Program-made: the position numbers and the translations under genes
Notes under the pieces: model-generated
What the model was told of the DNA's origin: nothing
The model's database searches: none
What the model saw: the letters and a program-made list of their open reading frames with translations, nothing else
Shown here: positions 8,736 through 63,298 of the stretch, one piece after another
How positions within the stretch are numbered: the first letter of the stretch is position 1
Layout of the letters: each line of letters starts with the position of its first letter
Source of the DNA: Candidatus Omnitrophota bacterium
GTDB lineage: Bacteria > Omnitrophota > Gorgyraeia > Gygaellales > Profunditerraquicolaceae
DNA length: 64,000 nucleotides
Direction: 5' to 3'
Assembly (NCBI GenBank): GCA_003598025.1
Contig: QZKH01000002.1
Location: forward strand, 10,133-74,132

Positions 8736-8743
8736 GGGTATTT

Positions 8744-9571
8744 TTGTTCATAGCTATGGATATAAATGATATAGAATTTACAATTTTTGATACCGAAACA
8801 ACCGGGCTTAACCCGCATTCCGGAGACAGGGTAGTTGAAATCGCCGCTGTCCGCATAAAGGGATTCCGGAAAATTTCAACATTTGAAAGCCTTATTAATC
8901 CAGGCAGAGGCGTATCTGAGGCGGCCTTTAATGTCAATCATATTGCTGAAAGCATGCTTCAAACAGCGCCGTTTCCGGAAAAAGTTTTTCCGGAATTCCT
9001 ATCGTTCATAAAAAACAGTTGCATCTGTTCATATAATGCAAGTTTTGATATTGCATTTTTGGATAAAGAGCTTGGATTGCTCGGCCAAAGATTAGACGAT
9101 AACGTTATTGTTATAGATATGCTGAAGATGGCCAGGCGCCTTTTGCCTGGTTTAGAGCGTTATGCCTTATGGTTTGTGGCAGACTATTTCGGCATAAAGC
9201 GCAAACAGGAACACAGGGCCTTAGCTGATGTGGAATTCAGCCTAGAGGTATTTTATAGGCTGATGAATATGTTAAAAGAAAGATCTATCGTAGAGATGGA
9301 TAATTTTATGCATCTTTTTGGAATAAGGTCTGAGGCGGTTTCCGGGATAAACAACGAAAAAATCGCCGAAATACAGGAAGCAATTGATCTTGGTGTTGAA
9401 ATAAAAATCAGATATATATCTGCGGTCAACGCTAAGGTTACAGAACGCAACGTCTTGCCGAAGCAGATTATACAGGATAAAGGGCAGGATTACCTGGTGG
9501 GGTATTGCAGCTTAAGGCAGGACCAGAGGACTTTTAGAATCGATGGCATACTGGATATCGAAATCTTATAA
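8744..9571 (+). CDS. DnaQ-like 3'-5' exonuclease (DEDDh) fused to a C-terminal WYL domain
   Basis: Exo I FDTETTG, Exo II YNASFDIAFL and Exo III HRALADV are present. The C-terminal 60 aa, IRYISAVNAKVTERNVLPKQIIQDKGQDYLVGYCSLRQDQRTFRIDGI, match the WYL-domain consensus (IxYxS...YLxGxC...RxFRxDRI). Confidence 0.7.
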   Translation: MFIAMDINDIEFTIFDTETTGLNPHSGDRVVEIAAVRIKGFRKISTFESLINPGRGVSEAAFNVNHIAESMLQTAPFPEKVFPEFLSFIKNSCICSYNASFDIAFLDKELGLLGQRLDDNVIVIDMLKMARRLLPGLERYALWFVADYFGIKRKQEHRALADVEFSLEVFYRLMNMLKERSIVEMDNFMHLFGIRSEAVSGINNEKIAEIQEAIDLGVEIKIRYISAVNAKVTERNVLPKQIIQDKGQDYLVGYCSLRQDQRTFRIDGILDIEIL

Positions 9572-16529: not shown

Positions 16530-18476
16530 ATGGCAAAAACAACTGATAATGAGCAAAACAGAAGAAGATATCATCGTATAAATACTGTATTACCGGTCCA
16601 ATTCAGGCTTGTTTCATTTGAAGGCAGGCATTTTTTATCTGGATGGCTCCAGGGTTTTACCAGCAACATCAGCAAGGGCGGGATTTGTCTGGCTGTCAAT
16701 AATCTTAATCCGGAGCTGGCGGCTTTGGTGATAAGCAAGGAGGTAAAAACCTCCATGGATATTGAGATGCCCGTATCAAGAAACCCTATATCTGCCTTGG
16801 CGCATATAGCATGGGTTAAAGAACAGATTTTGCCGACAGGTAATAAATACCTTATAGGATTAAGTTATGATGAAATAAACCCTGTCCACAACAGGCTGAT
16901 AATGCGTTATGTTTGGCTTAAAAAATTATTTTTTCCGATTTCCGCTTCCGTAATACTGTTGCTTGGCCTAGGCTTGGTTGTAAACAGCATAATGACTGCC
17001 AGGCTAATGGAGGGCAATAAATTACTTGTTGCTGAGCTATTAAAGAATGTGAATGATTCAAATTCTGCCAGGGCCAAAATTAAAGAAATGGATACCGAGA
17101 AATTAAAACTGGAATCCGAGTTAAGCCGGCTTCATGTGATGATAGGGTCTTTGGAGGCCGAAAGAGATTCATTAAACAGAAAAAATAATAAGGTTGAAGA
17201 GTTGGCATCACGTATTGAAGAGGTGACCCGCCAGAAAGAAGCATTACAAAAAGAACTTGCAGCCCTAAATAGCACCCAGAGTGCCGAAGTTAAGAAACTG
17301 GATTTATTAAGCAAGGAAAAATTAAAACTTGAAAAAGCCAATGTTTCTAAAATGTACGACTGGATTAGCGTACATCAAAACCCGAGCAATGGCCTGGTTA
17401 TGAGTTTTGAGGGCGATAGAGATATCCGCGGATGGTCGTTCATTTATGATCAGTCGCTGGCAGCGCAGGTTTTTATGATTTTTGCTGATTTTGACCGGGC
17501 AGCGATGATGTTGGATTTCTTCGATAGTAAAGCCCAAAGGATAGACGGCCTGTTTTTAAACGCCTATTATTTTAATGATGGTTCGCCGGCGGAATATACC
17601 GTTCATGCAGGGCCGAATATCTGGCTGGGTATAGCGGCATTGCAGTATACGCATAAGACAGGGGATACCAGTTTCCTGAGTATGGCTGAAGAGATAGCCA
17701 ACGGCATAATGCAATTACAAAATGAAGACGAAGAAGGAGGGATAAGGGGCGGACCGAATTTCGGCTGGTATTCAACTGAGCACAATCTTGATGCCTATGC
17801 ATTTTTTGATATGTTGCATATAATAACCGGAAAAGCTATTTATAAAACAGCCAGAGATAAAACATCTGCCTGGCTTAAAAAACATATTTATGATAAAGGA
17901 GATGTCCCCATAAGGCGCGGCAAAGGTGATTCGACGATCGCGACTGATACGTATGCCTGGGCAATAGCGTCATTCGGCCCTGAGACGCTGATAGATATGA
18001 AGATGGACCCGGACAAAATAATTGAATTTGCTGAAAATAACTGTGTGGTAGAAGTCCCCTTCTGCAGGTTAGACGGCCAAATAGTGAAAGTAAAGGGTTT
18101 TGATTTTGCTCCGGAAAGAGGCTTGGCAAGGGGAGGAGTGGTATCTGCGGAATGGACAGGACAGATGATTGTGACCATGAAGATTATGTCTGCGTATTAT
18201 TCTTCAAAAGGCATACCGGAAAAAGCAGCCCTTTATGCAAATAAGGCTGACGAATATTTGTCTGAACTCAGCAAAATGATAATTTCAAGCCCTTCTCCTT
18301 CTGGCCAGGGAGAAAGCTGCCTTCCTTACGCAACTCAGGATTTCGTTGATACAGGACACGGCTGGATGACACCTAAAGGTAAAGATACCGGTTCATTATC
18401 CGGTACTGCCTATGCTATATTCGCTTACTATAATCATAATCCTTTAAAGTTCAAGAAGGATGGCCAGAAAAATTAA
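16530..18476 (+). CDS. PilZ domain protein with a TM segment, a long coiled coil and a C-terminal ~380-aa α-rich domain (possible six-hairpin glycosidase-like)
   Basis: The N-terminus has the PilZ motifs RRRYHRI (RxxxR) and NISKGGICL (D/NxSxGG). There is a hydrophobic segment FFPISASVILLLGLGLVV. The repetitive LESELSRLH...LEAERDSL...EELASRIEEVTRQKEALQKELAAL stretch is coiled-coil. Confidence 0.6.
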   Translation: MAKTTDNEQNRRRYHRINTVLPVQFRLVSFEGRHFLSGWLQGFTSNISKGGICLAVNNLNPELAALVISKEVKTSMDIEMPVSRNPISALAHIAWVKEQILPTGNKYLIGLSYDEINPVHNRLIMRYVWLKKLFFPISASVILLLGLGLVVNSIMTARLMEGNKLLVAELLKNVNDSNSARAKIKEMDTEKLKLESELSRLHVMIGSLEAERDSLNRKNNKVEELASRIEEVTRQKEALQKELAALNSTQSAEVKKLDLLSKEKLKLEKANVSKMYDWISVHQNPSNGLVMSFEGDRDIRGWSFIYDQSLAAQVFMIFADFDRAAMMLDFFDSKAQRIDGLFLNAYYFNDGSPAEYTVHAGPNIWLGIAALQYTHKTGDTSFLSMAEEIANGIMQLQNEDEEGGIRGGPNFGWYSTEHNLDAYAFFDMLHIITGKAIYKTARDKTSAWLKKHIYDKGDVPIRRGKGDSTIATDTYAWAIASFGPETLIDMKMDPDKIIEFAENNCVVEVPFCRLDGQIVKVKGFDFAPERGLARGGVVSAEWTGQMIVTMKIMSAYYSSKGIPEKAALYANKADEYLSELSKMIISSPSPSGQGESCLPYATQDFVDTGHGWMTPKGKDTGSLSGTAYAIFAYYNHNPLKFKKDGQKN

Positions 18477-47870: not shown

Positions 47871-50800
47871 ATGAAATTAGCTGAATTCGGAGTAAAAAGA
47901 CCGGTCGCAAACCTGATGATTTTTACAGCTATTATTGTATTGGCCTTTTACAGCCTTACCAGATTAGGCGTAGATTCCTTTCCCGAGATAGAGCCCCCGT
48001 CCATAAGCGTTATATCTTCTTATCCCGGGGCAAATCCTGAAGATGTGGAGATCAAAGTTACAGAAGTGCTTGAGAACCAGCTTGCCACTACCCCGGGAAT
48101 CGAAAAGATTACTTCGCACTCTTCAGAAGGTTCATCTGTTGTTACCTTAAAATTCAGCTGGGGCACAGATCTGGACGCTGCTTCTAATGATATACGAGAT
48201 CGTATAGAGATAGCCAAACGTTCTCTCCCCGATATACCTGATGAGATGGACAATCCATTTATATTTAAATTCAACACATCCAATATTCCCATATTGTTCA
48301 TGGGTATTACTGCCACACAATCTTATACCGAACTTTATGATTTGCTAGATGACAGGATTGCTGATCCTTTAAGGCAGTTGCCAGGTGTAGGCACTGTCCA
48401 GTTTCAGGGCGGAGGGTTAGAGAGGCAGATTAATGTATGGATAGACAGGGAAAGGCTCCAGGGGTATGGTTTTTCAATCCTTGATATTAAAAACGCAATC
48501 AAGGCTGAAAATATTACTCAGCCCGTCGGTAATATAAAAGTCGGACTCACCGATTATTCGATAAGGCTGCCCGGAGAATTTACAGACCCCGGGCAGATCA
48601 ATTCAGTTGTATTAGGCAAGCGTAACGGCAAGATAATTTATCTGAGGGATGTAGCACGGGTAGAAGATGGTTTCAAGGAAGTGACCACTATTGCCCGCGT
48701 GGACGAGGGCCGGGCAATAATAATGATGGTCCAGAAGCAGAGCGGAACTAACACCGTAGAAGTAGCAGACAGGGTCAAGAAAAAGCTGGAAGAATTAAGG
48801 TATACATTGCCGCCAGATGTCAAGATGAGGCTGATGTTCGATAACTCCGAAGATATCAAGACCTCTTTGAGTTCACTTAAGGCCACAACCTGGTTTGCGA
48901 TACTTTTAGTCATTGTTGTTGTATGGTTTTTCCTGAGGCAATTCGCAGCAAGCATGATTGTTGCTTTGACTATACCATTTTCGCTCTTGATAAGTTTCAT
49001 ATATTTATTTCTTAGCGGTAAGACTATAAATGTAATCAGCCTCTCTTCGTTAGCTATAGCCTCCGGAATGGTTGTGGATAATGCTATCGTTGTGGTTGAT
49101 AATGTCTGGCGCCGCATAGAACACGGGCAAAGGACAAGCGAAGCATCCATATTCGGGACATCGGAAATATTTTTAGCAATCGCCGCCTCGACCCTTACTA
49201 CAATAGTCGTGTTTATGCCGCTTTTGTTTCTAACCGGAGTAGTGGGGAAGCTCTTTGGCGAACTGGCAGCTATAATAATCGTAACATTGTCAGCCTCTCT
49301 TTTTACAGCAGTAACATTTAGCCCTATGCTTTGTTCCAAATGGCTAAAGCCGGATCACAAATCATTAAAGGCAGGATTATTTAACAGGATGTATGCAGTA
49401 TCTGAGCAATGGTTTAAAAGCATGGAGAATACATACTCGAATATGCTTGCCTGGTGCCTTAAGTATAAGAAAATGGTAATTTCCATCTCTTTAGGGATAC
49501 TTATCTTTGTAGGCTTACTTACACGTTTTGTAGGCAATGAATTTATACCTGAAGAAGATACGGGCGATTTGCGTATAAGCGCGCACCTTCCGATAGGAAC
49601 GCGCGTTGAGGAGACCGATGGTTTAGCTAGAAAGATTGAGCAGATTTTTAAAGATGAAATCCCCGAAGCGAAATATTTTTACGTTAGGAGCGGCCAGCTT
49701 TCCGGCATCGGCAGGGCTTTTGGGAATGTTTCCGGTACGCATATAGTCTCAGCCGGCATCAAATTAGTCCCTAAGACAGAAAGAAAGCTTTCGGTTAAAG
49801 AGACAGCGGAAGTTGTAAGAAATAGGATCACCGCAATACCCGGGGTAATGAAAGTTGATATTACAACAGGAAACCCTATGGGTCGGCTGATTACCGGAGG
49901 AGGCAAGAGCATACAGGTAGAAATTATCGGCCATTCCTTTGAAGAAACAGATGCATTGGCTTTAAAGATCAAGGGTCTTATAGAAGGAATACCCGGTGCT
50001 GTAGAGGTGAGTATTTCCCGCGAAGCAAACCGGCCCGAGCTTAAGATTGATGTTGACCGCCAAAAATCTTCGGCATTGGGATTAGATATGAGCACTATAG
50101 CAGATACGGTTAACACTTTTATCCAGGGATCAGTTGCCAGTAAGTATAGAGAATCCGGGGATACATATGATATTTATGTAAGGGCAGATGATTTTTCGCG
50201 TTCGGACATAGAAGATATCAAGAACATACCTGTAGTGCCAGCAGATTCCGCATTTTCATTATCTTCCGGTAGCAACCCCAGGTTATCTCAGGATCTGAGA
50301 AAAACACAGATTACTTTGTCAAATATTGCTGAGATACGGCAGGAAAATATCCCGCAGGAGATAGAGCGTAAAAACCGGGAAAGAATAGTCAAGGTTGAAT
50401 GTAATGCCTATCGCCGCTCGACTGGTAAGATAGTGGAAGATATAAATAAAGAACTTAAGAACATGATAATACCGGCAGGTATACAGGTTATTATCGGCGG
50501 TGAGGCTGAAGAACAGGCTAAAGCTTTTAAGGACTTGTTTTTGCTGCTGATATTGGGGATCTTGTTAGTTTATATGGTTATGGCTGCTCAATTTGAATCA
50601 TTACTGGATCCATTTATTATAATGTTTTCCATACCTTTTACTTTCATCGGAGTAATCCTGGCATTTATTATCACCGGTACTAACTTAAGCGTTATAAGTT
50701 TTCTGGGTATAGTTATGTTGATGGGTATAGTCGTCAATAATGCTATAGTACTTATCAGTTATATAAATATTCTGCGCGCCAGAGGTTATTCTATGCATGA

Positions 50801-51044
50801 AGCAGTAACAACCGGCGGCAGGGACCGCTTAAGACCTGTGTTAATGACTACTATTACTACTCTCGTAGGCCTTCTTCCGCTGGCTTTATTTCAGGGGGAA
50901 GGGTCTGAATCCTGGCAGCCTTTAGGTATTACCATGATAGGAGGCCTTACCGTTTCGACGCTGATTACGTTATTGTTTGTCCCGACGCTTTATGCTATAT
51001 TTGAATCCAGGGTCAAGAAGAATAAGAGGAAAACCAATGCATAA
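47871..51044 (+). CDS. RND superfamily efflux transporter (AcrB/HAE1-like)
   Basis: 1057 aa with a 12-TM, two-large-periplasmic-loop organisation. Conserved TM4 and TM10 regions are present (e.g. SLSSLAIASGMVVDNAIVVVDNV, GIVMLMGIVVNNAIVLI). Confidence 0.9.
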   Translation: MKLAEFGVKRPVANLMIFTAIIVLAFYSLTRLGVDSFPEIEPPSISVISSYPGANPEDVEIKVTEVLENQLATTPGIEKITSHSSEGSSVVTLKFSWGTDLDAASNDIRDRIEIAKRSLPDIPDEMDNPFIFKFNTSNIPILFMGITATQSYTELYDLLDDRIADPLRQLPGVGTVQFQGGGLERQINVWIDRERLQGYGFSILDIKNAIKAENITQPVGNIKVGLTDYSIRLPGEFTDPGQINSVVLGKRNGKIIYLRDVARVEDGFKEVTTIARVDEGRAIIMMVQKQSGTNTVEVADRVKKKLEELRYTLPPDVKMRLMFDNSEDIKTSLSSLKATTWFAILLVIVVVWFFLRQFAASMIVALTIPFSLLISFIYLFLSGKTINVISLSSLAIASGMVVDNAIVVVDNVWRRIEHGQRTSEASIFGTSEIFLAIAASTLTTIVVFMPLLFLTGVVGKLFGELAAIIIVTLSASLFTAVTFSPMLCSKWLKPDHKSLKAGLFNRMYAVSEQWFKSMENTYSNMLAWCLKYKKMVISISLGILIFVGLLTRFVGNEFIPEEDTGDLRISAHLPIGTRVEETDGLARKIEQIFKDEIPEAKYFYVRSGQLSGIGRAFGNVSGTHIVSAGIKLVPKTERKLSVKETAEVVRNRITAIPGVMKVDITTGNPMGRLITGGGKSIQVEIIGHSFEETDALALKIKGLIEGIPGAVEVSISREANRPELKIDVDRQKSSALGLDMSTIADTVNTFIQGSVASKYRESGDTYDIYVRADDFSRSDIEDIKNIPVVPADSAFSLSSGSNPRLSQDLRKTQITLSNIAEIRQENIPQEIERKNRERIVKVECNAYRRSTGKIVEDINKELKNMIIPAGIQVIIGGEAEEQAKAFKDLFLLLILGILLVYMVMAAQFESLLDPFIIMFSIPFTFIGVILAFIITGTNLSVISFLGIVMLMGIVVNNAIVLISYINILRARGYSMHEAVTTGGRDRLRPVLMTTITTLVGLLPLALFQGEGSESWQPLGITMIGGLTVSTLITLLFVPTLYAIFESRVKKNKRKTNA

Positions 51045-51048
51045 TAAA

Positions 51049-51333
51049 ATGTTGATGATAATATATAATGAGGCTTTGGATGAAGAAGTCATGGAATTAT
51101 TCCAGGGTTGCCAAGTGCAAAGCTACACCAAAGTAACCGGCGTATTCGGCAAAGGCGTACTTTCAGGCCCTCATCTTGGGAATGATATATGGCCCGGGAA
51201 AAACAATATACTTTATATAGTGAGTGATGATGAACAGTCAAAGTGTATGCTCGGCCGTGTAGCAGAACTAAGGAAGAAACTCGGGCATGAAGGTATCAAG
51301 GCCTTTGTTCTGCCGGTAGAATATACCACCTGA
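51049..51333 (+). CDS. Small protein downstream of the RND pump (possible GlnB/PII-like fold, DUF3240-like)
   Basis: About 95 aa, overlapping the RND stop. Small PII-like proteins often accompany RND operons. The start codon is ambiguous (ATG at 51037, 51049 or 51055). Low confidence. Confidence 0.3.
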   Translation: MLMIIYNEALDEEVMELFQGCQVQSYTKVTGVFGKGVLSGPHLGNDIWPGKNNILYIVSDDEQSKCMLGRVAELRKKLGHEGIKAFVLPVEYTT

Positions 51334-52435: not shown

Positions 52436-52738
52436 ATGGAATGGGATAAGAATACAGAAGATAAATTTAAACTTTTTATCTCAAAAATACCTATTTTTCA
52501 CCGCGGGATAACGGAGATAGCAGTAAGAAAGAGGGCTGAAGAAAACGCGATTTCCAGGAAATCAGCAATTATCCAGGAACAGGATGTATTAAGCGCTTTT
52601 TTTTCGGATGTTCCTTCGCCTTTCTACAGCATGATGGTCAGGGTTATGGAACAGTCGGGGTTTGATTACAAGAAATACGGTTTTCCCAAGAGTACTAATC
52701 CGTTGGTAGGCAATAGCAGCAATAAACCAATTAAATGA
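52436..52738 (+). CDS. PCP_red-like small protein (protochlorophyllide reductase 57-kDa subunit C-terminal domain family)
   Basis: KLFISKIPIFHRGITEIAVRKRAEENAI resembles the PCP_red motif (IPxFxR...E..A...G). It is 100 aa and the first gene after the cluster promoter. Confidence 0.4.
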   Translation: MEWDKNTEDKFKLFISKIPIFHRGITEIAVRKRAEENAISRKSAIIQEQDVLSAFFSDVPSPFYSMMVRVMEQSGFDYKKYGFPKSTNPLVGNSSNKPIK

Positions 52739-53739
52739 AAATTGCAGTTGTCGGCTCGGGAGCAATAGGCGGCCTGGTAGCCGGTTATTTGAGCCTTAAG
52801 GGCAAAGATGTAGTTCTTATCGGCCGCAGCAATTCCGTTGCAGCAATAAACAGCAAGGGTTTGTTTATAAGCGGGGTAAGGGGAGATTTCAAGGTTAATA
52901 TCCCTGTTAAGGATAAGCTAGTTTCGGATGTTGATTTAGCTATATTTTGCACAAAGAGCCAAGACCTGGAGCAATCGATATCACAGAACATAGATTTTAT
53001 TAAGCAAGCCCAGATTCTAACGACTCAGAACGGCATCCGTTCAGAGGGTATTGCGTTAAAGTACGCGGATAAAGCAAGTATCATCTCCAGCATTGTCATG
53101 TTTGGCTCTACAAATTTAGAGCCGGGCAGGATTGTACATAATTTCGAGGGTAATTGGATACTCGGCAGGCCTTTTATAGAAAACGACCGTACGCTTATAG
53201 ATGTTAGCCTGGTATTGAATGAAATATTTCCTACCGTAATAAGCCATAATATCAGGGCAATGAAGTTTTTAAAGATTTTTGTCAATGCTAATAATTGTAT
53301 CCCGGCGATACTGGGATTAAGCATGCAGGAAGCTTTTAGTGACACGGATACCAGCCGGATCAGTGTTGCCATCTGGCGCGAAGGTTTTGATATTGTCAAG
53401 AGGTCGGGCATCAATCTTGTATCTTTGCCTGATTTTCCTCTTGAGCGCTTGACCGGCATTATCAGCATGCCGATGGAAAGCGCTGCTAAAGTGATCTCAG
53501 GTATAATGTCCGGTTTAAGCAAAGAGCCATTATACGGCTCTATACTCCAGAGTATAAAAAGAGGCAAGGATACGGAGATAGATTATATTAACGGTGAATT
53601 TGTAAAGCTCGCTGCTGAAAACAAGCTCGCCGCACCGTTAAATAAACGCCTTGTTGAAATGGTGCATATAGTCGAAAAAAACGGAAAATTTTTTAGCAGA
53701 GAGCAGTTGATTGAGGAAACGAAAGGTTTGTTAGCTTGA
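52735..53739 (+). CDS. Ketopantoate reductase (ApbA/PanE) family NAD(P)H-dependent oxidoreductase
   Basis: MKIAVVGSGAIGGLVAGYL Rossmann N-terminus and the C-terminal SILQSIKRGKDTEIDYINGEF (ApbA_C signature). Its placement in the PKS cluster suggests a ketoreductase role rather than pantothenate synthesis. Confidence 0.7.
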   Translation: MKIAVVGSGAIGGLVAGYLSLKGKDVVLIGRSNSVAAINSKGLFISGVRGDFKVNIPVKDKLVSDVDLAIFCTKSQDLEQSISQNIDFIKQAQILTTQNGIRSEGIALKYADKASIISSIVMFGSTNLEPGRIVHNFEGNWILGRPFIENDRTLIDVSLVLNEIFPTVISHNIRAMKFLKIFVNANNCIPAILGLSMQEAFSDTDTSRISVAIWREGFDIVKRSGINLVSLPDFPLERLTGIISMPMESAAKVISGIMSGLSKEPLYGSILQSIKRGKDTEIDYINGEFVKLAAENKLAAPLNKRLVEMVHIVEKNGKFFSREQLIEETKGLLA

Positions 53740-53740
53740 T

Positions 53741-54340
53741 ATGGAAAACATAAATTCGCCGTTCCCACGCCTCAAATTAACCGTGATGAATGTTTATGGG
53801 CATTGTTATCACGGATATAAGAAAGGTGACGAATTAATTTTAGAAGATTTTACCCATCCTCCAAAATTTTTCTGCCTAGGCCTGGCGCATGCGCTTTTTC
53901 CTGTCATATATGCATTAAGTTTCGGGGCAAAGTTTCCATTTAGAGATAACCAGCGTTCACTGCTGGTAACCTGTCCTGACGGAGGGAAGTTAGAATTTAT
54001 GGCCGAGGTGCTTGATAAGCAGGGCAAAATTGAGAAGTTACCTAAAGCCCCTGATTTTAAAGGGCCTAACCCTAAAAAGATGGTTATAGAAGTAGTGCAG
54101 GCAAAAGGTAAATGTACCTTTGGTTATAAGGTAGGGGATAAATGGGAGACAAGCGGCTTGAAATGCATCCCCGGTTTTTGCGGCGCAGCTTTTCATTGTG
54201 CGTTTCCTGCGCTTTTTGCTTTAAATTTCGGCGCAAAGTTTTTATTTATGGAAAATCCGGATTCAATCGATACTGTTACTTGCCCGGATGGCGGCAATAT
54301 AGTATTTAAGGTTTCGCGGGTTAAGGAGAATAAGAAATAA
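53741..54340 (+). CDS. Tandem duplicated Cys/His-rich domain protein, TIGR04076-like (two ~90-aa repeats)
   Basis: Two repeats are visible directly. Repeat 1: GHCYHGYKKGDEL...FCLGLAHALFPVIYALSFGAKFPF...TCPDGG. Repeat 2: GKCTFGYKVGDKW...FCGAAFHCAFPALFALNFGAKFLF...TCPDGG. From memory, this motif set matches the TIGR04076 family of ~90-aa proteins, some of which are duplicated. Confidence 0.5.
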   Translation: MENINSPFPRLKLTVMNVYGHCYHGYKKGDELILEDFTHPPKFFCLGLAHALFPVIYALSFGAKFPFRDNQRSLLVTCPDGGKLEFMAEVLDKQGKIEKLPKAPDFKGPNPKKMVIEVVQAKGKCTFGYKVGDKWETSGLKCIPGFCGAAFHCAFPALFALNFGAKFLFMENPDSIDTVTCPDGGNIVFKVSRVKENKK

Positions 54341-54341
54341 T

Positions 54342-55604
54342 ATGAAAAAGAGAAGGGTAGTTATTACCGGCGTAGGGGTAATTTCGCCTAACGGCATAGG
54401 CAAAGAAAATGCATGGAAAGCTTTCACCGGCGGAAAATCAGGAGTAAAAAGGGTTGATGGTTTTGATGTGTCGGTATTTAATACTAAGATCGCCGCCGAA
54501 GTGAGAGATTTCAATCCGTTTAAGCTTGGGTTGACTCATGAAGAAGCTACGCGCATGGATAGGTATGTCCAATTTGGAGTGGTTGCCGCAGATATGGCTT
54601 TTAAGGACAGCGGGCTTGTGCTTTTAAACGAGGACCCTGAGCGTATCGGGGTATGCCTTGCAAACGCTATATGCGGCACAAAGTATATGGAGGAAGAATT
54701 TGCCCTTGTCACCGAAGACGGAAAGAAGCCGATTGACCCTTCAAAGGTCAGGCCGGATCTTTATGATGCTGCAATGTTTAATACCCCTTCGATTGAAATA
54801 TCTGCGAAATATAAATTGAGAGGGATCTGCGATACTTTATCTACGGGATGCACCGCAGGCACTGATTCACTTGGTTTCGGGCTTGAAACTATACAGGATA
54901 ATGGACACGATATAATGGTCTGCGGAGCTGCAGAAGCGCCAATTACGCCGATAACATTCGGGGCATTCGATGTGGTCAGTGTCTTATCAGCCAGAAACGA
55001 TGAGCCTGAACGGGCCAGCCGGCCGTTTGATAAAAAAAGAGACGGTTTTGTCCTGTCTGAAGGAGCAGGTATCTTGATCCTGGAAGAATTGGAGCATGCG
55101 CGCAGGCGCAATGCGAGGATCTACTGCGAAGTGTTGGGTTTCGGTACCAGCTGTAATGCCTATCATATGACAGACCTTCCTTCCGACGGCGCTGCCATGG
55201 CCAGATGTATAAGCCTGGCACTCTCCGACGCTTATTTAAAGCCCAAAGATATAGACCATATTAACGCGCACGGTTCATCGACGCGTATGAACGATATATT
55301 TGAGACAAATGCCTACAAGACCATATTCGGCGATTATGCATATAAACTACCCATCAGTTCCTTAAAGTCTATGATCGGGCATCCTTTGGCTGCTGCGAAT
55401 GCGGTTGAGCTTACGATGTGTTCGCTGATGTTCCAGTATAATATTTTACCACCAACGATAAATCAAGAAGAGAAAGACCCTTTGTGCGACTTAGACTATA
55501 TTCCTAACGTTGCGCGCAGCAAGAAAATAAACACAATATTAAAAACCAGCAGCGGTTTCTCGGGGATCCATTCTTCATTGGTATTAAGGAGATTCGATGA
55601 ATAA
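54342..55604 (+). CDS. Type II polyketide synthase ketosynthase α (KSα)
   Basis: RRVVITGVGVISPNGIGKENAWKAFTGGKSGVKRVDGFDVSVFNTKIAAEVRDFNP is close to the actinomycete KSα N-terminus (e.g. TcmK/ActI-ORF1). The active-site Cys is in STGCTAG. Both His are present (AYHMTD, NAHGSST), as is the GHPL motif. Confidence 0.8.
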   Translation: MKKRRVVITGVGVISPNGIGKENAWKAFTGGKSGVKRVDGFDVSVFNTKIAAEVRDFNPFKLGLTHEEATRMDRYVQFGVVAADMAFKDSGLVLLNEDPERIGVCLANAICGTKYMEEEFALVTEDGKKPIDPSKVRPDLYDAAMFNTPSIEISAKYKLRGICDTLSTGCTAGTDSLGFGLETIQDNGHDIMVCGAAEAPITPITFGAFDVVSVLSARNDEPERASRPFDKKRDGFVLSEGAGILILEELEHARRRNARIYCEVLGFGTSCNAYHMTDLPSDGAAMARCISLALSDAYLKPKDIDHINAHGSSTRMNDIFETNAYKTIFGDYAYKLPISSLKSMIGHPLAAANAVELTMCSLMFQYNILPPTINQEEKDPLCDLDYIPNVARSKKINTILKTSSGFSGIHSSLVLRRFDE

Positions 55605-56826
55605 GATCGCGATCACAGGATTAGGGATAGTCAGCCCTTCAGGGATAGGCAAGCGCCAGTTTTGGGCCAATGTTAAATCCGCAAGGTCATTTGTCAAAAA
55701 GATCACCCGTTTCGACGCTTCCAGGTACCCGTCGCATATCGCCGGCCAGATTGACGACCTTGATAAATACAGTAATTTTTCTGAGAGGCTGCTTAAGAAG
55801 ATTGATGCATTTTCGCATATGGCTTTAGTCGCCTCTGAAATGGCGATGCAGGATGCCGGTATAGATATAAAGAATGAAGACCCGAACTTAGTAGGTATAT
55901 TCTTAGGTAATGCTATCGGCGGCTGGCTTTATGCGGAGACCGAATTACGCGACCTATATATTGAAGGAAGGGAAGGAGTCTCTCCATATATGGCTTCAGC
56001 ATGGTTTCCTGCTGCGCCTCAAGGTCAGGTCTCCATTTATTATGGAATAAAAGGTTTCAGTAAAACTGTCGTTGCTGACAGGGCAAGCTCTTTGATGGCT
56101 TTAGGCTATGCCAGGAGCACTTTAGCCAAGAATAAATTAAATATGATTATTTCCGGAGGCATGGAAGCACCGGTTACGCCTTATGCGCTTCTCTGTTGTA
56201 ATACCTATGGAGCGCTCTCTAGAAATAATGAGCGTCCTGAAACTGCCTACAGGCCTTTTGACAGAGATAGGTCCGGTTTTGTTATCGGCGAAGGCGCAGG
56301 TATCGTAGTTATGGAGCCTATTGAACGGGCAAAAAAGCGAAATGCCAATATAATGGCCTTAATTTCAGGATACGGCACAACCTGTGACGGTTTTGACAGG
56401 ATAAATCCATCTTCCGATGGCAGAGAGTTAGCCCGGGCGATAAATATGGCTTTGGAAGATGCGCAAATCAGCGCCGACGAAATTGATTATATAAGCTTAG
56501 ATGGTTTAGGAGTAAGTTTATGGGATGATAGCGAAGTAAGGGCGATAAAAACCGTTTTCAAAGATAATGCGGCAAGAATACCCGCCAGCTGTCCTAAGTC
56601 GATGTTCGGTAATTTATTAGGCGCCTCCGGGGCAGTGGATTTGATAGCAACAGTTCTTAGCATGGAGAATAATTTGATCCCGCCTATACTTAACCTGGAA
56701 AACCCCGATCCCAAAGGTTTAAATTACGTACAGGGGCAGGCAAAGGACTATAAGGTCGGCAGGGCGCTGGTAATTTCACGCGGCAGGGGCGGGATTAACT
56801 CAGCGCTTGTTGTAGAGAAGCCGTAA
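55597..56826 (+). CDS. Ketosynthase β / chain-length factor (catalytically inactive KS partner)
   Basis: Overlaps the KSα stop (ATGA coupling). KS fold, but the active-site Cys position reads VVADRASS (Arg, not Cys or Gln). Both catalytic His positions are lost (GTTCDGFD, ISLDGLGV). Confidence 0.7.
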   Translation: MNKIAITGLGIVSPSGIGKRQFWANVKSARSFVKKITRFDASRYPSHIAGQIDDLDKYSNFSERLLKKIDAFSHMALVASEMAMQDAGIDIKNEDPNLVGIFLGNAIGGWLYAETELRDLYIEGREGVSPYMASAWFPAAPQGQVSIYYGIKGFSKTVVADRASSLMALGYARSTLAKNKLNMIISGGMEAPVTPYALLCCNTYGALSRNNERPETAYRPFDRDRSGFVIGEGAGIVVMEPIERAKKRNANIMALISGYGTTCDGFDRINPSSDGRELARAINMALEDAQISADEIDYISLDGLGVSLWDDSEVRAIKTVFKDNAARIPASCPKSMFGNLLGASGAVDLIATVLSMENNLIPPILNLENPDPKGLNYVQGQAKDYKVGRALVISRGRGGINSALVVEKP

Positions 56827-56861: not shown

Positions 56862-58322
56862 ATGAAAATATTATTTGTTATGCCTAAGGTGGGTGCGTGG
56901 GCAACCCATGGAATACACAGGTCGCCAAACCAGCTTTATGCACATTGGGCTGCCTATGTGCGCCAGAGAGGTTATGAAGATGTGGCTGTAATTGACGGAA
57001 AAGCCGACCAGATTTCTATGGACCAGTTGATTGAGCTTGTCAAAGAGAGAAATCCGGATGTCGTGGTAATGGGGGAGCAGCTGCATGGTTATGGCGGATA
57101 TGGTGTGTTACGCCATTTCAAAGATGCCGCAGCAGGAATAAAGAAGGCGCTTCCCGGCACAAAGATAATCCTCGGCGGGTTGTGGTATTCGGCAATGCCG
57201 GTCCCCACATTAGAAGAGAATCCGGGGGTCGATTTTGTGGTTATGGGGGAAGAGGAATCATTCGGAGATCTGATAGAAGCAATAGATAAAAATAAGCCAG
57301 TCAAAGACGTAGGAGGAGTGGCTAGCCGTATTGATGGTAAGGCTGTAATGGGGCCGCATAAGCCGTTATTGAAAGATTTGGATTTGTTGCCGTTACCGGC
57401 ATACGATCTTTTTCCAATGGATAAATATGTGGGCCATACTTATTGGAAACCATTTGTTGATATGGTTACATCACGCGGGTGCCCTTCGGCATGCACATTC
57501 TGTTACGAGTGGGATCAGTATGATCCGCGCCACCCCGGGGATTTTCTTACCTGGAGGGCGAAATCACCTGAAAGGGTAATGGAAGAGTTGAATCTCTTGC
57601 ATAATAAGTATGGAGTAAAAGTAGTGGTTATTCAGGACGATAATTTTAATGTTGACCCCGAGCGGGTGCAGAAATTTTGCGAACTTAAAAAAGCATCAAA
57701 CAACCCTATTAAATGGGTCTCTTTGGGCCGGGCAATAGACTGGGTGAATTGCGAATCCATTCTGCCGTTAATGAAAGAAAACGGCCTGTTTATGGGTGTT
57801 TTCGGGATTGAGGTTACGACACAGTCGGAGCTTAAGAAAATAGCCAAAGGCATAACCATCGAACAGATCCAGAAAACAATCGATATCCTGCGTAAAAATG
57901 ATATCGCCATTGTTGCCGATATAATGATGGGTTTTGATTATGATACCGAGGCAATCATAAAGCAGAGATTTGAGTTTACCGATGCTGTAGACCCGGATAT
58001 CCTTTGGGTCGGCTATGTTACTCCTGCGCCTAATTCACCGATGTGGAGGATCTCTATGAAGAAGGGATGGATTGATCCAAAAAAAGTAGATTTTAGCACT
58101 TGGGATTTTTTGCATCCAGTTATACCTACCGACCACCTTAGTATCGAAGATCTGGGGAGGTTAGGATCATGGTGCATGCGCGAATTCTTCTCTAAACCAG
58201 GGAGGATCAACAGGATTATGGAAAGTAATTTTGATACCCTGGCTAAACTCTGCTTTCAGGATGTTATGGCAGGCATCAATAAATGGGAAGCAGCCGCGAC
58301 TAAGGGAGAAGTACAGATATAA
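56862..58322 (+). CDS. B12-binding class B radical SAM enzyme
   Basis: An N-terminal cobalamin-binding-like domain, then SRGCPSACTFC (CxxxCxxC). The 486-aa size is typical of BchE/HpnP-like class B radical SAM methyltransferases and cyclases. Confidence 0.8.
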   Translation: MKILFVMPKVGAWATHGIHRSPNQLYAHWAAYVRQRGYEDVAVIDGKADQISMDQLIELVKERNPDVVVMGEQLHGYGGYGVLRHFKDAAAGIKKALPGTKIILGGLWYSAMPVPTLEENPGVDFVVMGEEESFGDLIEAIDKNKPVKDVGGVASRIDGKAVMGPHKPLLKDLDLLPLPAYDLFPMDKYVGHTYWKPFVDMVTSRGCPSACTFCYEWDQYDPRHPGDFLTWRAKSPERVMEELNLLHNKYGVKVVVIQDDNFNVDPERVQKFCELKKASNNPIKWVSLGRAIDWVNCESILPLMKENGLFMGVFGIEVTTQSELKKIAKGITIEQIQKTIDILRKNDIAIVADIMMGFDYDTEAIIKQRFEFTDAVDPDILWVGYVTPAPNSPMWRISMKKGWIDPKKVDFSTWDFLHPVIPTDHLSIEDLGRLGSWCMREFFSKPGRINRIMESNFDTLAKLCFQDVMAGINKWEAAATKGEVQI

Positions 58323-58423: not shown

Positions 58424-58660
58424 ATGGAGACGAAGGCAAAAATAAAGGAAGTTATAGTAAATCTGCTCAGGATCAAACCCGAAGAGCTTAAAGACGGAAT
58501 GAGCCTGCAGGATAGTATCGGCGTTGATTCTACAGAGATGGTCGAAGCCGTAATTGCCCTTGAAAAGGCTTTTGGCGTAAAGTTAAGCGCTAAGGAAATA
58601 ACAAAAAGCTTGACCCTGGATGAGATCAGCAGCATCGTCGATTCTAAAATAGGCAAATAA
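58424..58660 (+). CDS. Acyl carrier protein
   Basis: A 78-aa protein with the GVDSTEMVE phosphopantetheine-attachment motif (Ser in DS) on a four-helix ACP scaffold. RBS GGAGG. Confidence 0.8.
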   Translation: METKAKIKEVIVNLLRIKPEELKDGMSLQDSIGVDSTEMVEAVIALEKAFGVKLSAKEITKSLTLDEISSIVDSKIGK

Positions 58661-59469: not shown

Positions 59470-59784
59470 ATGAGCCTTCCTTTATGGAAAGATTTGGAAG
59501 GGATGATGGAATTCCCCAGAGAAGGAGTTTTTAGCAAGGTTTTAGTTAAAACTCCCGAATCTAATCATACCCTGATGTGCCTTGCGCGGGGTAGCGATAT
59601 TTCAGAACATACATCTACGCGGGAAGCAGTGGTTACTGTATTAAAAGGCGAAGGTATTTTTATCCTTGAGGGTAAAGAAATAAAAATGAAGCCGGGAGTG
59701 TTTATATATATGCCGAAGAATGCCCCGCATTCATTAAGCGCAGATTCGGACTTAGCGATATTATTGAGTTTGTTTGGAAAATAA
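59470..59784 (+). CDS. Cupin domain protein (TcmJ-like, single cupin)
   Basis: 104 aa. Cupin motifs G(x)5HxH/E...G and PKNAPHSL. Its position between the cyclase and the ARO/CYC genes matches tetracenomycin-type clusters. Confidence 0.6.
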   Translation: MSLPLWKDLEGMMEFPREGVFSKVLVKTPESNHTLMCLARGSDISEHTSTREAVVTVLKGEGIFILEGKEIKMKPGVFIYMPKNAPHSLSADSDLAILLSLFGK

Positions 59785-59837: not shown

Positions 59838-60278
59838 ATGGGGCACACATGTAATTCTATAGTTATCAATGCTCCTTACGAGCTGGTATTTGATATCTCT
59901 AATGATATCCCGAGATGGACAGAGTTATTCGGCGGCGAATACAAGAAGGCAGAAGTTGTAAAAAAAGAAGCAAATAAAATCATATTCCGCTTAACTGACG
60001 ATGAAGATAAGAGCTGGCAGTCGTGGAGGCTGTTATTTAAGGACAAATATTTTGCTTACGCAGAGCGCGAAGAACCGAAATTCCCTTTTAAGTTTATGAA
60101 AATAATCTGGCTTTATACGCCAAGGGGCAGGGGCGTTGAACTTACCTGGATACAGCATTTTGAAATGGATGAAAAAGCAAAATTTAACGACCAGCAGGTA
60201 GAAGGCTTTATTAATAAACATTCCAAAGATAACTTGGAGATTTTTAAGCGTATCATTGAAAAAGAAGCGGGCAAGTGA
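59838..60278 (+). CDS. SRPBCC polyketide aromatase/cyclase (TcmN N-terminal-domain-like ARO/CYC)
   Basis: From memory, NSIVINAPYELVFDISNDIPRWTELFG...WIQHFEMDEKAKFNDQQ...IFKRIIE aligns with the TcmN ARO/CYC domain ([25 protein letters not shown]...WVQEFDM...FDN...IKKIIE). Confidence 0.75.
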   Translation: MGHTCNSIVINAPYELVFDISNDIPRWTELFGGEYKKAEVVKKEANKIIFRLTDDEDKSWQSWRLLFKDKYFAYAEREEPKFPFKFMKIIWLYTPRGRGVELTWIQHFEMDEKAKFNDQQVEGFINKHSKDNLEIFKRIIEKEAGK

Positions 60279-61396
60279 AGAAACTGACTTTTTTCCTCCT
60301 TTGTCTGGAGGGTGCAGTGTTATCATTCAATGTGGCGGCAACCGCGGCGATCGTGCCGTCTGTTGCTAAAGATTTTGCTCTTTCTCAATTCTTAGCAGGT
60401 AAAATAGTCTGGCTCTATATGCTCCCTTATGGGCTGGCGGCACTTATTTACGGTCCTCTAGTCAGGCTCATCGATGCAAAAAAGATAGAGTTGTTCTGCC
60501 TTTTCTTTTTTTCGCTGGCAAATTTGCTCGCAGGCCTCTCCGGGAGTATATACATGCTTTTTGCCTGCAGGTTGATGATGGGGATTTTTGGCGCATCTGT
60601 TATACCATTGGCTTTAATACTCATTGCCAGGCATATTGAACCGGATAAACGAGGCAGGCTTATCGGTATTTTTTTTAGCGCAACCTTTATCGCTTCGCTT
60701 TTAGGCCTGCTTTTAAGCGCTGTTATTCCCTGGAGGATGATTTATATTATCCCCGCAATTTTAGGGTTTATTACATGGGGGATTGTTTATTTTTATTTAC
60801 CGAGCTTTAAAACGGACGTTTCAAAATTCCAGCTAAGTTATATTGCTGCCTTTAAGGACAAAGCAGTATTATTTATATTCCTTTATATATTTTTAGTGAG
60901 TTTTATTTACCATGGGATACAGCAGTGGCTGGGGGTATATTTCTCGACACAGTATTCGTTTACCCAGTTTGTGATAAGCATGCTTATCACGCTGACCAGT
61001 TTAAGCGGGATTTTTGGAGAAGTTATCGGCGGAAGGCTTGCAGATAAGCTTGGCAGAATAAAGACTATAGACATAGGCTTAATTCTGATGCTGATTATAG
61101 TTTTAGGGCTGATTGCCAGGACGAATTTATTTGTTTTGGCTTTACTTATGATTGCCTGGGGTTTTGGCTGGACTTTAAACCATGCAGGCCTGTCAACCGC
61201 CCTTACTGATTTACCGGATAAATTCTTAAATGAAGCTGCAAGCCTTAACAGCTCGGTCCGTTTTCTTTCAGGCGGCATAGGTGCAGCAGCCGGCGGCGCC
61301 CTGATGCAGAGAAGCTTTAATTTCGGTTTCATAGTCTTTGCTATCGGCCTTATAGCATTGCTTTTTTTAAGCAGGGAAATTATAATTTCAAAGTAG
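60275..61396 (+). CDS. MFS transporter
   Basis: 373 aa and about 12 predicted TM helices. The conserved loop 2-3 motif is GPLVRLIDAKK and there is a DKxGR-like motif (ADKLGRIK). GTG start overlapping the previous stop. Confidence 0.7.
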   Translation: MKKLTFFLLCLEGAVLSFNVAATAAIVPSVAKDFALSQFLAGKIVWLYMLPYGLAALIYGPLVRLIDAKKIELFCLFFFSLANLLAGLSGSIYMLFACRLMMGIFGASVIPLALILIARHIEPDKRGRLIGIFFSATFIASLLGLLLSAVIPWRMIYIIPAILGFITWGIVYFYLPSFKTDVSKFQLSYIAAFKDKAVLFIFLYIFLVSFIYHGIQQWLGVYFSTQYSFTQFVISMLITLTSLSGIFGEVIGGRLADKLGRIKTIDIGLILMLIIVLGLIARTNLFVLALLMIAWGFGWTLNHAGLSTALTDLPDKFLNEAASLNSSVRFLSGGIGAAAGGALMQRSFNFGFIVFAIGLIALLFLSREIIISK

Positions 61397-61408: not shown

Positions 61409-62182
61409 ATGTCAGATTTAAAGGGAAAAGTAGCAATTGTAACTGGGGCCAGCCGTGGCATAGGCAAGGCGCTTGCATCCACAGCAGCATCTTTGGGGAT
61501 AAACTTGGCTATTGCAGCAAGAAACGAAGCGCCCCTGAAAGAGACAGCAGAAGAATTGTCAAAAAAATATAAGGTTCAAATCTTGCCTGTTGCCTGTGAC
61601 GTTACAAAGCTTTCGGACCTTGAAAACCTGGTAAATAAAACAAAGTCTAAATTCGGTGGAATAGACATTCTTATTAATAATGCCGGAGTGTCGAGCCAAT
61701 ACCCTTTTGAGAAACAGCCGATCGAGGATTTTGAGAAGCTTGCGCATACCAATTATCTGGGTTATGTGCGCCTAATACGACTTGTGATAAATGATATGAT
61801 AAATAATAAATACGGAGCAATAATCAATATGGTTTCAGGCTCAACATTGGTTGACCCTGTTCCAAGAAGCTTTATAGTCTACAGTTCATTAAAAGTCGGT
61901 TTGCGTGCTTTTTCAAAAGGTCTGTTTTGGGAGCTGCGTGATTACGGGATCAAAGTCACTTCAATATTACCGGGAGTGACCGATACTGATTTAACCGGTA
62001 AATTGGATAATATAACGGGGGACACATCGCGCCTTATGACAACAGAGGCTATTGAAAATGCCCTTAAATTTGCTTTAACTGTTCCGGCAAATGTATGTCC
62101 GCTGGAAATTTCAGTTATTAACCAGCAGACGCCGTGGGTTAAGCCGGTGATTCCGTTTAAGCAGGAGCATCCGAACAAATAG
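61409..62182 (+). CDS. Short-chain dehydrogenase/reductase (polyketide ketoreductase-like)
   Basis: KVAIVTGASRGIGKALA (TGxxxGxG), NNAG, the catalytic S...YSSLK (YxxxK), and the 257-aa size. Confidence 0.85.
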   Translation: MSDLKGKVAIVTGASRGIGKALASTAASLGINLAIAARNEAPLKETAEELSKKYKVQILPVACDVTKLSDLENLVNKTKSKFGGIDILINNAGVSSQYPFEKQPIEDFEKLAHTNYLGYVRLIRLVINDMINNKYGAIINMVSGSTLVDPVPRSFIVYSSLKVGLRAFSKGLFWELRDYGIKVTSILPGVTDTDLTGKLDNITGDTSRLMTTEAIENALKFALTVPANVCPLEISVINQQTPWVKPVIPFKQEHPNK

Positions 62183-62231: not shown

Positions 62232-62831
62232 ATGAAAAAAACAATATTGTTTGCTGTGGCGTTTGCCGTGTTTTTTACAGGGATTTCTTACGCGGAAAGC
62301 TTGTTGATCGATGATTTTGAGGGTGTTATTTCCGGCGGGGCGCAAGGTACGGTTGATTTTGGTTCAGGCAACGGTTCAAGCCTGAATGTAAGCGCTTCCA
62401 CAGGCACAAAGTATTCTGGTAACCAATCTTTAGAGCTTAAATATGATGCGATTAGCGGTGGATATATGTGGGCTGCCCGCGGTTCCAGTTTAGACGCAGC
62501 TGGCGCCGGATGGTTGATTAAACCCGAAGATATTGAATGGGGTGGTTACAGCAAAATAAGTTTTTATATGTTCGGCAGCAATTCCGGGGCAATGGTTGCT
62601 TTTGATATAAAGGATAGCGGCAGTGAAATCTGGAGATTCCTGATTGAAGATAATTTTACAGGCTGGAAGCAGATAGTCTGCGAGTTTAATAAGTTTATGG
62701 CAAGGGATGATTGGCAGCCGCAGGATGCAGATAATAACTTGGAGCTTGATTTTCCTCTAAAGAGCTTTCAGTTTGAGGTTTTGCCTGAAGCAAAAGGCAC
62801 GGTCTATTTTGATAAGGTTGAGCTGGAATAA
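62232..62831 (+). CDS. Secreted protein, possibly CIA30/CBM11-like β-sandwich
   Basis: Signal peptide (ILFAVAFAVFFTGISYA), then LLIDDFEG, which resembles the start of CIA30/carbohydrate-binding β-sandwich domains. Weak support. Confidence 0.35.
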   Translation: MKKTILFAVAFAVFFTGISYAESLLIDDFEGVISGGAQGTVDFGSGNGSSLNVSASTGTKYSGNQSLELKYDAISGGYMWAARGSSLDAAGAGWLIKPEDIEWGGYSKISFYMFGSNSGAMVAFDIKDSGSEIWRFLIEDNFTGWKQIVCEFNKFMARDDWQPQDADNNLELDFPLKSFQFEVLPEAKGTVYFDKVELE

Positions 62832-62905: not shown

Positions 62906-63298
62906 ATGGATAAGAAGGATATTCGTAATTTGAAAAAAAGGTATCTTATCTGGTTTTATAAAATGGCTAAAGAAGCCTTAGATAAGGTGGAGAGGAAGTT
63001 TACCCAGCTTGAGGTTGACGGTATCGTTCTTAGAGAGTTAAAGATGCTGGACAAGGGCAGAATGGTCCAAACTAAGATCGCTGAGTTTGAAAAATACATT
63101 GATAATAAGAAGAAGGACGGGATAGGCCTTAAATACAACGGCAAGGAATTGCGGGATGAGTATTTATATCTGGTTTTAAGGTTAAAGGCTGTAGAAAAAA
63201 CAATAGTAATAGAGTTGGGCAAGAAGGCCCTTAGCGAAATAAAAAGCTTATATGAAGACGAAATGACTGAACGCATCATAAAAAGCACAGAGCATTAA
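62906..63298 (+). CDS. Hypothetical protein
   Basis: A 130-aa basic, helical ORF in the + strand operon context. No motif recognised. Confidence 0.35.
   Translation: MDKKDIRNLKKRYLIWFYKMAKEALDKVERKFTQLEVDGIVLRELKMLDKGRMVQTKIAEFEKYIDNKKKDGIGLKYNGKELRDEYLYLVLRLKAVEKTIVIELGKKALSEIKSLYEDEMTERIIKSTEH

Follow-up and report, generated by a model that had tools for sequence, protein, structure and literature searches.

The 64,000-nucleotide stretch analysed here (the window; positions 10,133 to 74,132 of contig QZKH01000002.1, from a Candidatus Omnitrophota bacterium) encodes a polyketide synthase (PKS) of type II together with a small protein, T4076x2, that consists of two TIGR04076 domains in tandem and whose gene lies directly 5' of that of the alpha ketosynthase (KS-alpha). 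The association of T4076x2 with the PKS is strongly supported and, in the literature we searched, undescribed. T4076x2 is very probably a dedicated accessory component of the anaerobe-type type II PKS, working close to the acyl carrier protein (ACP). The gene and its two domains are as follows.

53741..54340, + strand: T4076x2, tandem TIGR04076 protein of 199 aa with an ATG start, from the list of open reading frames (ORFs), hidden Markov model (HMM) searches, BLASTP and an AlphaFold2 model
53765..54016, + strand: N-terminal TIGR04076 domain, about residues 9-92, with Cys22, Cys45 and Cys78 invariant
54071..54325, + strand: C-terminal TIGR04076 domain, about residues 111-195, with Cys125, Cys147 and Cys181 invariant

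A preliminary description of the locus had likened the protein to the TIGR04076 family and had seen an internal duplication in it, and our searches agree with both. The NCBIfam model TIGR04076.1 (91 positions, curated cutoff of 33 bits) matches T4076x2 in two stretches with 100.7 bits (E 5.1e-29), the better of them placing residues 112-195 on profile positions 2-90, and an HMM made from 30 family members also detects two domains. The same protein is labelled 'TIGR04076 family protein [Candidatus Omnitrophota bacterium]' in NCBI. Residues 1-101 and 102-199 are 38% identical over 88 residues (BLASTP, E 4e-18), and each of the four motifs quoted in support of the duplication is found in both halves. 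These are G20-H-C22-Y-H-G-Y-K-K-G-D30 and G123-K-C125-T-F-G-Y-K-V-G-D133; F44-C45 with H50 and F146-C147 with H152; F61-GAKF-P-F67 and F163-GAKF-L-F169; and T77-CPDGG82 and T180-CPDGG185. The C-terminal half is nearer to the generic single-domain family than the N-terminal half.

The domains had also been called Cys/His-rich, which is true of the family for the cysteines and of the subfamily alone for the histidines. In 30 diverse members with a single domain, three Cys and one Gly are invariant, and the Pro and Asp that follow the third Cys hardly vary. The three Cys of a domain (G-x-C, [FM]-C and C-P-[DE]) are present in both halves of T4076x2, where C22/C45/C78 and C125/C147/C181, the third Cys always within the C-P motif, are conserved in at least 98% of 226 tandem proteins. 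The N-domain of these tandem proteins has the additional invariants C-Y-H24 and D36-F-T-H39-x-P. No Pfam family matches T4076x2 at E 0.01 or better.

The genes around T4076x2 that belong to the cluster, or accompany it, are these.

52436..52738, + strand: s100, small protein of 100 aa, first gene of the conserved block, with weak DUF2621/PCP_red similarity
52735..53739, + strand: ApbA/PanE-family NAD(P)H reductase, 334 aa (TIGR00745, 171.6 bits against a cutoff of 141; PF02558, PF08546)
54342..55604, + strand: KS-alpha ketosynthase (PF00109/PF02801) with a Cys-His-His triad
55597..56826, + strand: KS-beta, a chain-length-factor-like subunit with the active-site Cys replaced by Arg (VADRASS)
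56862..58322, + strand: B12-binding radical SAM enzyme (BchE/HpnJ-like), 486 aa (PF02310, PF04055)
58424..58660, + strand: ACP, 78 aa (IGVDSTEMVE), whose orthologue in the related locus L001 carries PF00550
58660..59457, + strand: PF04199 (OxyN/DpsY-type) cyclase (Pfam E 5.7e-28)
59470..59784, + strand: Cupin_2 protein, in only 8 related loci
59838..60278, + strand: SRPBCC (TcmN-type) polyketide cyclase/aromatase (PF10604, PF03364)
60275..61396, + strand: MFS transporter (PF07690)
61409..62182, + strand: SDR ketoreductase (PF00106 and a KR domain)
62232-62831: CBM11-like protein, present with the cluster in 26 related loci
62906-63298: unannotated protein of 130 aa (u130), present with the cluster in 39 related loci

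The context is that of a type II PKS, as one operon encodes KS-alpha, a KS-beta without the catalytic Cys, a separate ACP and cyclases for aromatic polyketides. The triad motifs of KS-alpha read STGCTAG, AYHMTD and NAHGSST in translation. KS-beta is also without both catalytic His and is 37-38% identical to annotated chain-length factors of Streptomyces. The canonical Gln of chain-length factors is not found at its active-site Cys position, where the window and the related loci L096, L097 and L098 have Arg (the A/S-D-R-A-S motif lies in genes at 8730-9959, 7374-8609 and 9001-10242 of the latter three, respectively). The Arg motif is common to Omnitrophota, to a metagenome-assembled genome (MAG) of Bacillota and to a Bacillus plasmid, which suggests a distinct type of chain-length factor, possibly one without decarboxylative priming. 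The ACP has the motif GVDST, unusual compared with GxDSL, and its gene is shorter than usual ORF length cut-offs. The placement of T4076x2 between the ApbA-type reductase and KS-alpha is as previously described, with a spacer of 1 nt on each side: the ApbA stop codon (53737-53739) precedes the ATG at 53741, and the T4076x2 stop codon (54338-54340) precedes the KS-alpha ATG at 54342. It had also been placed at the head of the PKS cluster, which we correct: two or more genes of the conserved block come before it, s100 (52436-52738) and then ApbA in the window, and in relatives the block extends further upstream.

When a single genome was scanned for each GTDB species, 273 relatives were detected, the best 80 of which provided loci for comparison. 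All of these best 80 are from Omnitrophota MAGs, some of them labelled 'uncultured Planctomycetales', with identities of 79-87%; these near relatives saturated the scan, so that its census is one of this phylum. The NCBI proteins clustered at 90% include more than 120 clusters that share 78-88% identity with T4076x2. We searched 83 loci with the window proteins using tblastn, and the gene order is the same in all loci that are long enough: s100-ApbA-T4076x2-KS-alpha-KS-beta-B12 radical SAM-ACP-PF04199 cyclase-(cupin)-SRPBCC-(MFS)-SDR-(CBM11-like)-u130. Flanking genes vary among loci, so the block from s100 to u130 is the conserved unit. T4076x2 is a constant member of this operon in more than 80 species of Omnitrophota. 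The mean identity of T4076x2 across these loci (83%) is on par with those of KS-alpha (81%), the B12 radical SAM enzyme (84%) and SDR (84%), and far above that of ApbA (58%); the remaining values are 78% for KS-beta and 66% for both ACP and s100. The gap between T4076x2 and KS-alpha is usually -4 to +5 nt. The 83 orthologues show 83% amino-acid identity and identities of 0.83, 0.92 and 0.45 at the three codon positions, the third being nearly saturated, and T4076x2 is therefore under strong purifying selection.

More divergent tandem orthologues (45-61% identity), which come mostly from Omnitrophota where the source is named, show which of these neighbours are the closest. T4076x2 lies directly 5' of KS-alpha, KS-beta, ACP and cyclase in L086, L087, L088, L089 and L097. 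The B12 radical SAM gene has shifted to the end of the cluster in four of these (L086, L088, L089 and L097), while the fifth, in a complete genome of 1.82 Mb, has no B12 radical SAM gene within 10 kb, no SDR nearby and a truncated ApbA. In L085, a contig of 63% GC, the order is s100-T4076x2-KS-alpha-KS-beta-ACP, without ApbA. Given the arrangements in L085-L089 and L097, the tightest partner of T4076x2 is the KS pair, not ApbA or the radical SAM enzyme.

Natural fusions connect the domain to the same machinery. Among the 150 best family representatives, two (P0162 and P0168) carry a PP-binding (ACP) domain after a TIGR04076 domain. P0168 is from the Bacillota MAG, where its locus (L096, 34% GC) has a KS 46% identical to the KS-alpha of the window and a KS-beta (ADRAS) 42% identical to its counterpart, followed by the TIGR04076-ACP fusion. 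Genes for a PF04199 cyclase, SRPBCC, ACPS, CMD, DUF362, DUF169, ACP and hydrolases come next, and then a second, stand-alone TIGR04076 gene, KSIII, ACPS, Amidohydro_2 and a thioesterase. A metagenome scan with both TIGR04076-ACP fusions returned one locus, an ordinary Omnitrophota cluster. In the other fusion, P0503 (Omnitrophota, 536 aa), ApbA is joined to T4076x2, and a second, partial NCBI record of it exists. We considered a frameshift artefact, since the two genes are 1 nt apart and the fusion is found in 0 of the 83 loci; we kept the fusion as moderate evidence because there are two separate records, one of them full length. The link to the synthase thus rests on three independent lines, namely the ACP fusion in Bacillota, the ApbA fusion in Omnitrophota and the gene order of L085 without ApbA. 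That T4076x2 is a chance neighbour of the PKS was rejected on synteny and fusions.

The TIGR04076 family overall is not a PKS family, because the single-domain members that we examined sit in isolated, unrelated gene contexts; a TIGR04076 gene of Bilophila, for example, adjoins an isethionate lyase cluster. The recurrent KS and ACP partners that the preliminary description proposed to look for are therefore found for the tandem Omnitrophota subfamily (83 loci) and the Bacillota ACP fusion, which are the PKS-linked part of the family, and not for the family overall. Tandem repeats are common in it: of 150 representatives, 105 have one domain, 21 have two, 6 have three and 9 have four, and JGI/IMG names the family 'uncharacterized repeat protein'. 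One representative of 1501 aa (P0151) was discarded as a false positive, being an ankyrin-repeat protein. Other fusions involve redox domains, with P0220 (a cluster of 28 members) carrying Flavin_Reduct and then a C-terminal TIGR04076 domain, and P0169 carrying three TIGR04076 domains, then DUF362, then 4Fe-4S ferredoxin domains. DUF362 thus meets TIGR04076 twice, in the latter fusion and as a gene of the Bacillota PKS cluster (L096, 12561-13643). The named sources of family members are anaerobic lineages, and the family appears restricted to anaerobes. A search of the plasmid collection found no TIGR04076 relative. The literature that we searched holds no test of the function of TIGR04076 and no link of the family to PKS, in agreement with the earlier statement that no such role had been described. 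It mentions the family in passing, with the guesses 'redox or iron cluster' and 'fimbriae-associated', neither with evidence.

The aerobic comparison is a cluster on a plasmid of Bacillus bombysepticus, whose KS-alpha (49%), KS-beta (42.5%, ADRAS), cyclase (45%) and SRPBCC protein (39%) are identical to those of the window to the extent given, making it about as related to the window as the Bacillota MAG cluster. It also encodes FAD-dependent oxidoreductases and methyltransferases. The HMM finds no TIGR04076 domain in 23 kb around this cluster, and T4076x2 is thus not required for chain assembly by this type of KS.

The AlphaFold2 model of the full protein (pLDDT 89, pTM 0.84) has two beta-beta-alpha-beta-beta domains; the secondary structure of the N-domain is E10-18, E31-34, H46-60, E73-77 and E84-91, and the C-domain modelled alone has a pLDDT of 90. 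The confidence of the two-domain model and its well-modelled linker imply that the domains are packed in a fixed way. Along the secondary structure, the three Cys come just past strand 1, at the helix N-cap and at the end of strand 3, positions that would be compatible with one metal site per domain. Foldseek searches of the PDB with the full model and with a single domain gave no hit with an E value under 0.2. Just the XdhC/CoxI-family entries 3on5 and 2we7 recurred, at non-significant E values of 0.25-0.7; for the single domain, 2we7_A came with a probability of 0.92, a TM score of 0.56 and a root-mean-square deviation of 3.1 A over 86 columns, with 3on5 second. Sequence and family-profile searches of the PDB gave nothing significant, the best being ASH2L zinc-finger regions at chance level (E 0.17). 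One tandem protein, P0061, has an insertion of 15 residues in the inter-domain linker, and in L008 (1845-2606) and L070 (10001-10759) the query match extends over about 760 nt rather than about 600, perhaps owing to a similar insertion. If so, the linker tolerates changes of length and the domains do not.

Several genes in and around the clusters have less direct bearing on T4076x2. The match of s100 to Pfam DUF2621 (E 0.0024) is below threshold, the PCP_red/DUF2621 similarity is also weak in L003, and the gene was found in 74 related loci. In L086, a second copy of s100 forms a C-terminal extension of the B12 radical SAM enzyme (16649-18376, 575 aa; 38% identity at 18125-18361), and s100 is therefore probably a partner of that enzyme. 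The radical SAM enzyme of the window falls below every NCBIfam equivalog cutoff. A ladderane-type lipid cluster was rejected on its score (72 bits against the TIGR04072 cutoff of 360) and on the presence of aromatic-polyketide cyclases. The CBM11-like and 130-aa proteins have no obvious role in polyketide synthesis. Upstream (47871-51333) are genes for an RND transporter and, after it, a PII-like 'PG0541 family transporter-associated protein'; only about 17 loci have the pair together with the cluster, and it is thus probably outside the latter. In L086, L088, L089 and L097, the region upstream of ApbA encodes PadR, an AMP-binding ligase, PNP_UDP_1, IF-2B-family isomerases, a class II aldolase and an aldehyde dehydrogenase, a set that looks like 5'-deoxyadenosine or methylthioadenosine salvage, and the region downstream encodes Amidohydro_2, Aminotran_4 and an aldehyde:ferredoxin oxidoreductase. 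Neither group is found at this position in the window clade.

How T4076x2 acts can be proposed with less confidence than its membership of the synthase. The roles suggested in the preliminary description (starter-unit factor, cyclase, chaperone) are conjectures. In our proposal, the two TIGR04076 domains would form a compact pseudo-dimer, and the three-cysteine site of each most likely holds a metal centre; for this we lean towards an oxygen-sensitive Fe-S cluster rather than structural zinc. Its host would be the 'ancestral' type II PKS of anaerobes, composed of KS-alpha, an Arg-type KS-beta, ACP and cyclases of the OxyN and TcmN types. T4076x2 may sit beside the ACP, putatively touching both the KS heterodimer and the reductase of the ApbA type, and there carry out or assist a redox or Lewis-acid step that needs no oxygen, its substrate being the starter or nascent chain tethered to the ACP; in the homologous clusters of aerobes, flavin- or O2-dependent enzymes would carry out the same task. 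We tentatively favour such a module, with a Cys3 Fe-S site and a redox or Lewis-acid action on intermediates bound to the ACP, because of the three invariant Cys with the C-P motif, the distribution apparently confined to anaerobes, the oxidoreductase and ferredoxin fusion partners, the poly-repeat arrays, and the absence from the aerobic homologue that has flavoenzymes.

Several observations weigh against this proposal. The sequence has no ferredoxin or rubredoxin motif (neither a CxxC pair nor CxxCxxCxxxCP) and no Fer4 or rubredoxin match in Pfam, and an electron carrier would be an unusual fusion partner for an ACP. Enzymes of the ApbA type transfer hydride without a flavin, so the ApbA fusion alone lends no support to one-electron chemistry. 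Net charge and pI give no consistent basic signature for docking to an ACP, and the contrast between aerobes and anaerobes comes down to one aerobic cluster. Even the tie to the PKS is broken in the P0389/P0121 clade (Omnitrophota, 21 sequence clusters), where the tandem gene lies away from any KS. In the locus of this clade that we analysed (L084) the motifs of the N-domain are kept, and the gene stands between those of a TPR protein and a PilZ protein; the tandem gene of this clade is 1.8 kb from a non-orthologous B12 radical SAM gene, whose product is 24% identical to the enzyme of the window.

The domain might instead have no redox role, T4076x2 being a structural adaptor in which a pseudo-dimer, stabilised by zinc or otherwise, tethers ACP (and, in Omnitrophota, ApbA) to KS-alpha and KS-beta. 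This is possible, and a purely structural adaptor is nearly as likely as the Fe-S redox or Lewis-acid module. It fits the constant position directly 5' of KS-alpha with coupled spacing, the evolutionary rate shared with KS-alpha and the fusions to ACP and ApbA, as well as the small size of domains in which neither a catalytic motif nor a Pfam match to a cofactor-binding family is recognisable. The varied fusion partners across the family are those expected of a generic interaction module, and the tendency to tandems of even number is in keeping with a domain active as a dimer. Yet the comparably related Bacillus system of KS-alpha, Arg-type KS-beta and ACP works without TIGR04076, the seeming restriction of the family to anaerobes and its mostly oxidoreductase partners are left aside, Pfam shows no homology to DUF35 (no match to PF01796 or PF12172), and the charge pattern expected for ACP docking is missing. 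A different kind of catalysis, with the Cys serving as an acyl relay or priming factor that passes a non-acetate starter to KS-alpha, or with T4076x2 as a new cyclase or dehydratase of the ACP-bound chain, seems unlikely to us. In its priming version it would compensate for the Arg that KS-beta has in place of the decarboxylating Gln, and the lack of that Gln, the AMP-binding ligase upstream in relatives, the second TIGR04076 gene directly before the priming ketosynthase KSIII in L096 and the ACP fusion, which puts the domain at the substrate, all speak for it. The Bacillus cluster, however, has the same Arg-type KS-beta and no TIGR04076 domain, and single-domain relatives lie far from any ACP or KS. 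Moreover, T4076x2 has no Pfam profile match to known polyketide cyclases (SRPBCC, SnoaL, TcmI, cupin, PF04199) and no Pfam similarity to hotdog dehydratases or acyltransferases.

We give slightly less credit still to T4076x2 as an electron donor that replaces ferredoxin for the B12 radical SAM enzyme of the cluster, reducing its [4Fe-4S] cluster or cobalamin. Such an enzyme is encoded in the same cluster in the window, L001, L086, L088, L089 and L097, another lies close to the tandem gene of the unlinked clade, and the family has fusions to flavin reductase and ferredoxin domains. But the gene tracks KS-alpha while that of the radical SAM enzyme moves (L086, L088, L089), no radical SAM gene is found in the Bacillota cluster L096 or, within 10 kb, in the complete genome L087, the enzyme near the unlinked gene shares little with that of the window, as its identity attests, and the protein found fused to a radical SAM enzyme is s100, a different small protein. 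Very improbable, finally, is a relationship to the XdhC/CoxI N-terminal domain, with T4076x2 as a chaperone that handles a cofactor. That family alone recurs among the structural matches, 3on5 being top for the full model and 2we7_A for the single domain, but the E values of 0.25 to 0.7 go with identities of 10-15%, T4076x2 has no match to PF02625, and neither NCBIfam nor Pfam matches reveal molybdenum-enzyme genes in the cluster.

The Fe-S module reading can be extended to a broader claim, which we consider improbable as a whole: TIGR04076 would be an unrecognised class of three-Cys Fe-S domains, docking on or fused to ACPs, that performs an oxygen-independent redox step on ACP-bound intermediates in the type II PKSs of strict anaerobes. 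The oldest lineage of type II PKSs would then have had it as a fourth core component, lost when aerobes took up flavin- and O2-dependent tailoring. Type II PKS enzymology is that of a three-protein minimal system, known mostly from aerobic actinomycetes. Here an extra protein is conserved like the ketosynthase, fused to an ACP in a Bacillota MAG and missing from the aerobic Bacillus homologue. T4076x2 thereby points to a step that is missing from current models of how anaerobes assemble polyketides, and TIGR04076, widespread and without an assigned function, gains a concrete and testable biochemical context. Since the operon is near-universal and syntenic in a large clade of Omnitrophota, an occasional antibiotic is a less likely product than a core metabolite or a compound resembling a lipid.

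Compared with the bulk of its family, with which it has in common domain size, the three invariant Cys, the C-P-D motif and the tandem habit, T4076x2 belongs to a distinct tandem subfamily that has its own N-domain invariants and is locked into a type II PKS operon. Zinc-ribbon proteins of the DUF35/PhlB type are small, bear Cys, are encoded beside condensing enzymes and scaffold complexes of thiolase-fold enzymes. T4076x2 resembles them in being a small Cys-bearing protein encoded beside condensing enzymes, from which a scaffold role would follow by analogy, whereas there is no sequence or Pfam relationship and the fold is different. Small carriers of the Fe-S or rubredoxin type fused to flavin reductases occupy a position comparable to that of TIGR04076 in P0220, and P0169 combines the domain with 4Fe-4S domains; T4076x2 differs from such carriers in having three conserved Cys, not four, no CxxC pairs and no Pfam match. 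The N-domain of XdhC/CoxI (2we7, 3on5) superposes on a single domain with TM scores of 0.51-0.56, at insignificant E values and 10-13% identity, with no shared motif and no molybdoenzyme context. KS-CLF (chain-length factor) pairs from Candidatus Omnitrophica have been catalogued, not studied (PMC10132072). Among known type II systems, the most similar are the den (dendrubin) and clr (clostrubin) clusters, which are described as 'ancestral' non-actinobacterial type II PKSs of the composition KS-CLF-ACP-TcmN-OxyN (PMC7693217). They share with the window KS-alpha, KS-beta, ACP, cyclases of the TcmN and OxyN types, a ketoreductase and an exporter (PMC7693217). No TIGR04076 component is listed in the portion of the den cluster description that we consulted (PMC7693217), and relative to den and clr, as described there, the window adds the tandem TIGR04076 protein before KS-alpha, the ApbA-type reductase, the B12 radical SAM enzyme and the Arg in place of Gln in KS-beta.

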